Shown here piece after piece: positions 49,284 to 49,572 of a DNA stretch of 64,000 bases. A program made the position numbers and the translations under genes. The stretch is from Escherichia coli. Lineage in GTDB: Bacteria > Pseudomonadota > Gammaproteobacteria > Enterobacterales > Enterobacteriaceae. The stretch's first letter is position 1. Each line of letters starts with the position of its first letter. The DNA lies in NCBI RefSeq assembly GCF_003790525.1, contig NZ_CP033635.1; one strand, 5' to 3'. The notes beneath the pieces were generated by a model. It was given only the letters and a program-made list of their open reading frames with translations. It ran no database searches and was not told the origin of the DNA.

Positions 49284-49572
49284 ATGCGTCTCCAGGAGTG
49301 GAATGCGGACAAAGTTATCATACCACTTTATGCATGCGTATGCCATTGTTAAAATATAAATCGAATGATTGAAATAATATTATTTATTGATGTTATGAAT
49401 ATTAATATATTCCTAAAATTGATTATGTTGAATTGTGAAAAAACATATTTTTCAGTAGGTTGTATTTTTTTGAGAATAAATAATTTTATCTAAAGATGCT
49501 TTTTTGTGTTGACTTGAAAAATAGTATGATTTCTAATGCGCCAACTTTTTATGAAATAATTTAACTGATTAA

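Follow-up and report, generated by a model that had tools for sequence, protein, structure and literature searches.

The stretch of DNA analyzed in this study (the window) is 64 kb long and was 100% identical to the chromosome of Escherichia coli SMS-3-5, in an orientation reversed relative to that of K-12. A short divergent spacer, the regulator gene on its left, and the fimbrial gene cluster on its right make up the locus, and their features are as follows.

48507 to 49283, minus strand: exuR, a hexuronate regulator of the GntR/FCD family (annotation and Pfam domains)
49284 to 49572: divergent control region between exuR and the fimbrial chaperone gene, 289 bp, 25% GC (sequence and annotation)
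49332 to 49572, no strand assigned: AT-rich core specific to the cluster haplotype, 73-85% AT in 48-bp bins, without K-12 or Klebsiella homology, putative H-NS nucleation region (composition and comparison)
49573 to 50289, plus strand: eafA-type periplasmic chaperone, PapD_N (annotation and domains)
50319 to 50819, plus strand: CS1-type major pilin, Fimbrial_CS1 (annotation and domains)
50910 to 53594, plus strand: usher of the TcfC/CooC type (annotation and domains)
53591 to 54685, plus strand: tip adhesin or assembly initiator of the CfaE/CblD family (annotation and domains)
54708 to 54743, minus strand: intrinsic terminator hairpin of exuT, which stays beside exuT and marks the right-hand limit of cluster-specific DNA

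The open reading frames between 49573 and 54685 were contiguous, were all encoded on the plus strand, and followed the gene order of alpha fimbriae, namely the chaperone, the major pilin, the usher, and the tip adhesin or initiator. Pfam E-values were 1e-23 for the Fimbrial_CS1 pilin, 1e-59 for the TcfC/CooC usher, and 2e-97 for the CblD/CfaE adhesin. Beyond the cluster, the terminator hairpin was followed by exuT and uxaCA. This location between exuT and exuR matches that of a published locus: a "CS1-like" operon has been described in the strains SE11, HS, ATCC 8739, 536, E24377A, and SMS-3-5 (PMC2608844), and the same operon was named eafABCD in E. coli W, where it was placed between exuT and exuR (PMC3032704). 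It was also included among the chaperone-usher types of a later work (PMC6033998, citing PMC3559732). The fimbrial cluster is the already published CS1-like or eafABCD operon of the alpha type (alternate chaperone-usher, class-5-like). The operon is known, its control region is of a known kind, and the current understanding is not overturned. What this study adds is a corrected set of candidate promoters, negative results for Rns, an ExuR-operator-like element, a haplotype-specific exuR leader, and the genus-wide age of the insertion. In the searchable literature, no study was found on the regulation or function of the operon, and a search for the regulation of tcf gave nothing usable.

The cluster was found at the exuR/exuT locus in approximately 1905 of the 5426 complete E. 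coli genomes (~35%), where it occurred in several allelic forms; the spacers of other common alleles were only 78-80% identical to that of SMS-3-5. Carriers included ExPEC, STEC, ETEC, and commensal strains, and E. fergusonii and three other (cryptic) Escherichia lineages had the cluster at this locus as well. The insertion, judged from these sequences, appears to be old and genus-wide. All four fimbrial genes were intact in SMS-3-5 and in many other genomes, and degraded copies were also observed, such as that of KFu022, in which the chaperone gene is frameshifted and the usher gene contains an IS1. Roughly a third of the sequenced E. coli carry this intact-looking pilus operon, and the searchable literature offered nothing on the timing of its expression or on its binding target.

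Besides Escherichia, relatives of the cluster were identified in several genera of the Enterobacterales. The cluster proteins were 40-54% identical to those of a Yokenella cassette (in which the chaperone is named TcfA by one source), and the chaperone was approximately 47-51% identical to its counterparts in Citrobacter, Enterobacter, Buttiauxella, Chimaeribacter, Edaphovirga, and Enterobacillus. Across the Tcf-like cassettes of Yokenella, Citrobacter, Enterobacter, Buttiauxella, and others, protein identity ranged from 40% to 64%, with an identical gene order and ushers carrying TcfC domains. The Tcf family takes its name from TcfABCD of Salmonella Typhi, and the likeness described here is to these other enterobacterial cassettes rather than to the S. 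Typhi tcf genes themselves. Similar to eaf, the cassettes lay between housekeeping genes, with AT-rich DNA upstream and no AraC neighbour. They differed from it in their insertion sites, which were unrelated (for example gyrA-rcsC, lysR-type neighbours, moeB, and fepC-entF), and in that some carried a second gene of the CfaE/CblD type; only the Escherichia cluster was head-to-head with exuR. The CS1 (cooBACD) and CFA/I (cfaABCE) operons also shared the four-gene order, the Pfam families, and an AT-rich promoter region with eaf. In contrast, their proteins were only 29-42% identical to those of the cluster, and eaf is chromosomal and genus-wide rather than plasmid-borne.

The first-pass annotation had described the DNA upstream of the chaperone gene as extremely AT-rich and as a typical target of H-NS. 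The composition was confirmed: GC content was 25.3% over 49284-49572 and 21.4% over 49330-49572, compared to 50% for the window, and the lowest-GC 289-bp stretch of the 64 kb fell in the exuR/chaperone spacer, with only 0.14% of such stretches being as low. At 73-85% AT across approximately 240 bp, the region lay far above background over more than 100 bp, as expected of an H-NS-silenced region. The same signature was found upstream of every relative examined, as the upstream spacers in Yokenella, Enterobacter, Chimaeribacter, Edaphovirga, Buttiauxella, Citrobacter, and Enterobacillus had a GC content of 25-36%, compared to 49-57% for the locus.

On these grounds 49284-49572 is a plausible H-NS target, a reading drawn from composition and analogy. 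The closest analogy is to the cryptic chaperone-usher operons of commensal E. coli, which are reported to be repressed by H-NS (Korea et al. 2010, as cited in PMC3559732). The operons of K-12 resemble eaf in being chromosomal, in having AT-rich upstream DNA and no linked regulator, and in combining weak promoter signals with little or no known expression. They differ in that eaf belongs to the alpha clade rather than to the gamma or pi clades and is absent from K-12, and the link of eaf to H-NS is by analogy. H-NS binding or expression data for the eaf locus were not found in the searchable literature. Transcripts of the CS1-like usher and pilin have been detected in RNA-seq of non-O157 STEC, with higher levels in HUS isolates (PMC6033998). 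The detection of these transcripts indicates that the operon is not dead, and it fits a low but non-zero expression. The contrast between STEC groups may partly mirror gene presence and absence, with 15 strains compared to 12.

Other modes of control were also searched for in the spacer. For a phase-variable switch of the fimS type or of the pap type (Dam/Lrp), the repeats recovered were all low-complexity AT sequence, with no arrangement of the kind seen in invertible elements, no recombinase was located near the cluster, and no GATC was present in 49284-49572. An Rfam scan of 48000-57000 at E <= 0.1 gave no match. Small open reading frames within the spacer were dismissed as AT-rich noise, and readings of the conserved blocks by eye as CRP, Cra, IHF, Lrp, or H-NS motifs were unconvincing and are not claimed.

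Candidate promoters on the fimbrial side were identified through a phylogenetic footprint based on an alignment of eight Escherichia alleles (six in an earlier version). The elements considered are listed below.

49433 to 49461, plus strand: distal candidate promoter P2, TTGTGA-N17-TAGGTT, with TAAGTT in most alleles (alignment)
49509 to 49515, plus strand: TTGACTT, candidate -35 element of the proximal promoter P1, the same in seven of the eight alleles (alignment)
49525 to 49530, plus strand: TATGAT, the -10 element named by the first-pass annotation, inside the allele-variable spacer of P1 (rejected as a -10)
49532 to 49537, plus strand: TCTAAT, candidate -10 element of P1, 17 nt past TTGACT, the same in seven of the eight alleles and without the -11 A (alignment)

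Sigma-70 promoters need 16-18 nt between the -35 and -10 elements. The pair proposed earlier, TTGACT and TATGAT, is separated by only 10 nt (TTGACT lies at 49509-49514), the stretch around TATGAT differed in every other allele, and a consensus scan returned no such pair, so that it was abandoned. The hexamer that stands at a suitable distance from TTGACT is TCTAAT at 49532-49537. Read as a sigma-70 promoter, P1 takes the form TTGACT-N17-TCTAAT, with 10 of 12 hexamer positions matching the consensus, a 17-nt spacer, and a C in place of the -11 A. Since this C stands at a near-invariant position, P1 was skipped by the consensus scan. The 16 nt that separate TTGACTT from TCTAAT varied freely among the seven alleles that keep both elements, and the eighth, of the Escherichia lineage L023, was without P1. 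For P2, the -10 element lay within the block TTTCAGTA, which was invariant in all eight alleles including that of L023, and the hexamers matched the consensus at only four of six and three of six positions; P2 is weaker than P1. Such blocks are invariant across E. coli, E. fergusonii, and the cryptic clades, with variable positions next to them, which argues for function. Whether P1 or P2 is used, the fimbrial promoter is predicted to be intrinsically weak. The predicted leader of P1 showed no unusual structure (z = 0.5), and no obvious Shine-Dalgarno sequence was seen ahead of 49573.

With a C at -11, P1 may fall outside the sigma-70 class altogether. One possible identity is a promoter of the sigma-E type, which would link the pili to envelope stress. 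The sigma-E consensus is GGAACTT-N16-TCAAA, with a strong preference for the 16-nt gap (PMC1312014). The gap of the candidate is exactly 16 nt, TTGACTT-N16-TCTAA matches the consensus at four of seven and four of five positions, the second base of the -10 element is a C, which is odd for sigma-70 and is the usage of sigma-E, and the T that follows TTGACT is likewise invariant. However, the most informative part of the -35 element, AAC, reads GAC in the candidate, the element is missing in L023, the word "fimbria" does not appear in the text on the K-12 sigma-E regulon, and the likeness was spotted post hoc. A sigma-E-type promoter is therefore considered highly improbable.

It was also proposed in the first-pass annotation that a cognate activator of the Rns/CfaD type is missing from the locus. 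The Rns core consensus is TATTTTTTTATC (PMC2579436), and sites are recognized by an identity of at least 67% and a position adjoining the -35 element. A single element of the spacer resembled it.

49479 to 49490, plus strand: AATAATTTTATC, the sole match to the Rns/AggR core, 9 of 12 positions with TATC intact, judged to be a chance match (consensus from PMC2579436 and PMC6392122)

One match in the spacer compares to 1.3 expected in composition-matched shuffles, and two matches of 11/12 were present in the control, the DNA upstream of CFA/I. When each allele was scanned, three of the six had no match and the others had theirs at non-homologous places. The TATC of the SMS-3-5 match reads TAAC in six alleles and is replaced by another sequence in the seventh. 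In position, the match ended 18 nt upstream of TTGACT, and the predicted start of P1 lay approximately 60 nt downstream of the match; a site abutting the -35 element, as in the Rns/CfaD regulon, was not found in 49284-49572. Similarly, no second match that could serve as the site at approximately -109 was present on either strand of this region. AggR-dependent promoters follow a different rule, in which a -10 element with an A at its second position lies 21-23 bp past WWWWWWWTATC (PMC6392122). The spacer resembles the AggR-dependent fimbrial promoters of EAEC in its AT-richness and in one WWWWWWWTATC match at 49480-49490. It differs from them in that TATC is unconserved and that no usable -10 element lies 21-23 bp downstream, where the hexamers starting at 49512, 49513, and 49514 are ACTTGA, CTTGAA, and TTGAAA; the distance from the match to TATGAT is 34 nt.

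The search was extended to the activator genes. As noted in the first-pass annotation, no AraC-family gene lies in or beside the cluster: none was annotated in the window, in approximately 14 kb past its left end, in approximately 12 kb past its right end, or on the 130-kb plasmid pSMS35_130. The regulators annotated nearby were TdcA, TdcR, YhaJ, AgaR, and ExuR. A tblastn search with both halves of CfaD, a query that is insensitive to distant AraC members, returned no match in the window and flanks or in pSMS35_130. The rns search in SMS-3-5 covered the window, approximately 26 kb of extra flank, and pSMS35_130, in a genome that further comprises the remaining chromosome and three small plasmids. 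Among the enterobacterial relatives with a chaperone identity of at least 47%, no gene with an AraC-type HTH was found within 10 kb of the cluster through Pfam lists and a three-seed HMM. This HMM replaced the C-terminal domain of CfaD, which missed the MarA control when used alone as a probe for the AraC family. With the HMM, linked AraC-type genes were detected only in three Stenotrophomonas loci, at a distance of approximately 6 kb, and in one Pseudomonas locus, at approximately 9 kb.

Across the 5426 genomes, DNA similar to rns, cfaD, aggR, or csvR was detected in 213 (4%), by a DNA-level search that recovers only relatives of approximately 65-70% identity or above, and 275 of the 290 copies were plasmid-borne. 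Genomes with rns-like DNA were nine-fold fewer than carriers of the cluster. Absence of an AraC gene beside the cluster is in itself uninformative, since rns is unlinked even for CS1, where it is located on another plasmid (PMC9820224).

These observations bear on the possibility that the operon depends on an activator of the Rns/CfaD type encoded elsewhere in the genome, which would counter H-NS as it does at CFA/I and CS1. Several points favour it. The operon is in the same alpha or alternate chaperone-usher class, and one 9/12 core match with TATC exists in the SMS-3-5 allele. Some ETEC may combine the operon with the activator, as E24377A, for example, presumably carries rns. The CS1-like operon has been described in that strain (PMC2608844), the coo and rns genes of ETEC are not linked (PMC9820224), and AggR/Rns sites are degenerate and easily gained by AT-rich promoters (PMC6392122). 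However, the match is at chance level, mis-positioned, and unconserved in the other seven alleles, rns-like DNA is rare among genomes relative to the cluster and was not found on pSMS35_130, the enterobacterial relatives have no linked AraC genes, and the CfaD regulon of H10407 does not include such an operon (PMC5554520), although H10407 may not carry the cluster. Dependence on such an activator is considered very unlikely. Unlike CS1 and CFA/I, eaf has no conserved Rns box beside the -35 element or at approximately -109, and most of its carriers are without rns-like genes. By these comparisons a nearby Rns-type activator would not be expected, and its lack appears to be the usual state in this family of pili, contrary to the earlier view of a missing cognate regulator. 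Attention is directed instead to P1, P2, H-NS, and possibly sigma-E or ExuR.

The other part of that view, that the operon is cryptic or regulated from elsewhere, agrees with the present results, which point to unlinked factors or poor expression. We consider it reasonably probable that the cluster is a weakly promoted, horizontally acquired pilus cassette that is silenced in the manner of H-NS targets and activated by an unlinked factor other than Rns. P1 and P2 would provide only weak initiation of the sigma-70 type within approximately 240 bp of DNA of 73-85% AT. This DNA would most likely nucleate H-NS, possibly together with StpA/Hha, and the resulting silencing would hold the operon at a low basal expression. 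Activation, if any, would come from an unlinked factor distinct from AraC proteins of the Rns/CfaD type.

Alternatively, the operon may have neither dedicated silencing nor activation, and may simply be decaying behind an AT-rich spacer and a weak constitutive promoter. Consistent with this, P1 and P2 are both weak, the start at 49573 is not preceded by an obvious Shine-Dalgarno sequence, degraded copies such as KFu022 exist, and the cluster is absent from 65% of E. coli genomes. The four genes are nevertheless intact in SMS-3-5 and many other genomes, and intergenic blocks are invariant across Escherichia while the positions flanking them vary; decay is accordingly rated as unlikely, and silencing of a weakly promoted cassette remains the preferred reading of the fimbrial side.

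The same spacer was expected to carry the exuR promoter, and candidates for it were found on the minus strand.

49317 to 49346, minus strand: exuR promoter candidate ATGGCA (49346-49341)-N18-TGgTATGAT, with an extended -10 (-10 at 49322-49317), present in all alleles (scan and alignment)
49325 to 49352, minus strand: overlapping alternative exuR promoter, TTAACA (49352-49347)-N16-TAAAGT (49330-49325) (scan and alignment)
49308 to 49329, minus strand: ExuR-operator-like 8-3-8 palindrome AAAGTGGTATGATAACTTTGTC, with a core invariant among alleles (in-window comparison)

The palindrome overlapped the -10 element TGgTATGAT of exuR, and it was identical at 20 of 22 positions to an element at 56471-56492, approximately 50 nt upstream of uxaC, with no such match expected by chance. 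uxaCA is a classical target of ExuR, and because of this likeness the palindrome is read as a putative ExuR operator: in its sequence and in its overlap with a promoter, it resembles the elements of the ExuR-controlled uxaCA and exuT promoters. Negative autoregulation of exuR, with ExuR binding predicted from sequence likeness, is probably retained. The in-window comparison was used in place of an ExuR/UxuR consensus, AAATTGGTATACCAATTT, which gave no match at three or fewer mismatches even at uxaC and exuT.

Comparison with strains that lack the cluster placed the boundary of the haplotype. In both K-12 and Klebsiella pneumoniae, the arrangement is exuT, terminator, approximately 35 bp, operator, and exuR, and the two sequences are identical at 34 of 48 positions in the exuR leader and at 27 of 37 positions beyond it. 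This homology indicates that the adjacency of exuT and exuR is ancestral and that the cluster is an insertion, in the direction originally assumed. Additionally, the K-12-specific 31-bp junction sequence was sought inside the island as the scar of a deletion, and it was absent. The cluster-type 48-nt exuR leader was identical to that of K-12 at 27 of 47 positions, a lower identity than that of Klebsiella, and the right half-site of the palindrome together with the whole leader differed from the K-12/Klebsiella exuR allele. The ExuR protein, in contrast, has a single accession common to K-12 and the cluster-positive strain KSC1031. Since the leader is diverged and the protein is the same, the haplotype boundary is placed at the exuR start codon.

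The exuR -35 element, located at the edge of the AT-rich block, and all DNA upstream of it are new in cluster-bearing strains, and the terminator stays with exuT. Read-through from exuT into exuR is predicted to be abolished in these strains. The K-12 exuR promoter predicted from RNA polymerase SELEX is TTTTCA-N16-TAAACT (PMC3946193), and it sits in DNA that is absent from the cluster-positive strains. The idea that the insertion rewired exuR control holds at the sequence level, where the leader and the -35 element differ, but the regulatory modules were re-created rather than lost, as the extended -10 and the 8-3-8 ExuR-type palindrome are present at an unchanged spacing. In the proposed mechanism, exuR would be transcribed from the TGgTATGAT extended -10 under the overlapping palindrome, and its -35 element, upstream DNA, and leader would derive from the cluster-bearing haplotype rather than from the ancestral K-12/Klebsiella sequence.

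An operator in a shared divergent region raises the possibility that ExuR couples the fimbriae to hexuronate sensing. The cluster is head-to-head with exuR throughout Escherichia, the spacer contains an ExuR-type palindrome, and a half-site-like AAAATAGTATGAT lies in the P1 spacer of SMS-3-5. However, P1 lies 180-200 bp and P2 more than 100 bp away from the palindrome, the half-site is allele-specific, and the relatives in other genera do not adjoin exuR. Such coupling is considered highly improbable.

A further reading is that the cluster haplotype represents an old, self-contained regulatory module, which brings its own exuR leader and promoter together with a conserved non-canonical fimbrial promoter that depends either on an alternative sigma factor, for example sigma-E, or on an undiscovered activator. 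We consider this improbable; if true, pilus expression in approximately a third of E. coli would follow envelope stress or the availability of hexuronate instead of the logic of H-NS and Rns. With regard to exuR itself, cluster-positive and cluster-negative strains differ in its control region, and this difference may have consequences for the use of hexuronates in the gut.

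The 5' leader of exuR (window 49284-49331) in the cluster-bearing strains was found to be identical to that of K-12 at 27 of 47 positions, while the Klebsiella leader (K. pneumoniae) matched K-12 at 34 of 48. Hence, the K-12 leader is closer to that of Klebsiella than to that of the cluster-bearing strains. The ExuR protein, in comparison, is represented by one accession common to K-12 and the cluster-positive strain KSC1031. The combination of a diverged leader and an identical protein therefore places the haplotype boundary exactly at the exuR start codon. These sequence relationships suggest an old haplotype, transferred via recombination in the flanking genes.

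A mosaic pattern of between-allele divergence was observed across the fimbrial operon when window 49573-54685 was compared with its counterparts in KSC1031 (L003 7380-12487) and E. fergusonii (L008). The major pilin and the usher shared identities of 97.6% and 95% between alleles, respectively, while the chaperone shared only 84%, the spacer upstream of the operon 78%, and the tip adhesin 72%. The adhesin and the operon 5' end may have been subject to diversifying selection or to recombination, which would account for this mosaic. The fourth gene (window 53591-54685) matched the CblD/CfaE family with an E-value of 2e-97, and it is annotated in RefSeq as a CfaE/CblD tip adhesin; according to the genome paper of E. 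coli W (PMC3032704), the eaf cluster has no tip adhesin gene.

Within the spacer of the candidate proximal promoter (TTGACTT-N16-TCTAAT), the sequence AAAATAGTATGAT (window 49518-49530) resembles AAAGTGGTATGAT, the left half of the ExuR-operator-like palindrome upstream of exuR. This likeness corresponds to the inverted-repeat pair I2 of the repeat search. As AAAATAGTATGAT is confined to the SMS-3-5 allele, the resemblance is probably coincidental.

The copy of the cluster in E. coli KFu022 (L004 7379-12176) is decaying, with a frameshift in the chaperone gene and an IS1 inserted in the usher gene. In Escherichia sp. MOD1-EC7003 (L023 9680-10025), the promoter-proximal 100 bp was replaced, and so was the start of the chaperone coding sequence, over ~10 codons; the TTGACTT/TCTAAT elements are absent, and the distal TTGTGG-N17-TAAGTT blocks are retained.

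Among relatives in other genera, a run of 11 C occurs 5' of the related cassette of Buttiauxella sp. (L018), ~75 nt upstream of position 10001. This tract may allow phase variation by slipped-strand mispairing; the Escherichia spacers contain nothing resembling it. Three relatives encode a second CfaE/CblD-type gene:

L016 8743-9885, Chimaeribacter, second CfaE/CblD-type gene
L017 15416-16546, Edaphovirga, second CfaE/CblD-type gene
L018 16501-17634, Buttiauxella, second CfaE/CblD-type gene

The Chimaeribacter relative also has an HTH_46 regulator gene immediately upstream.

In SMS-3-5, agaI is directly followed by rsmI (window ~6,800; L005 22179-22229), and the yraHIJK fimbrial operon is absent from this strain. 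K-12 carries yraHIJK at this position, and the agaI > yraH spacer is included in a published list (PMC3946193). Additionally, the large IncF plasmid pSMS35_130 encodes the H-NS co-modulator Hha (L020 3164-3373), which could contribute to the silencing of AT-rich loci such as the eaf spacer.
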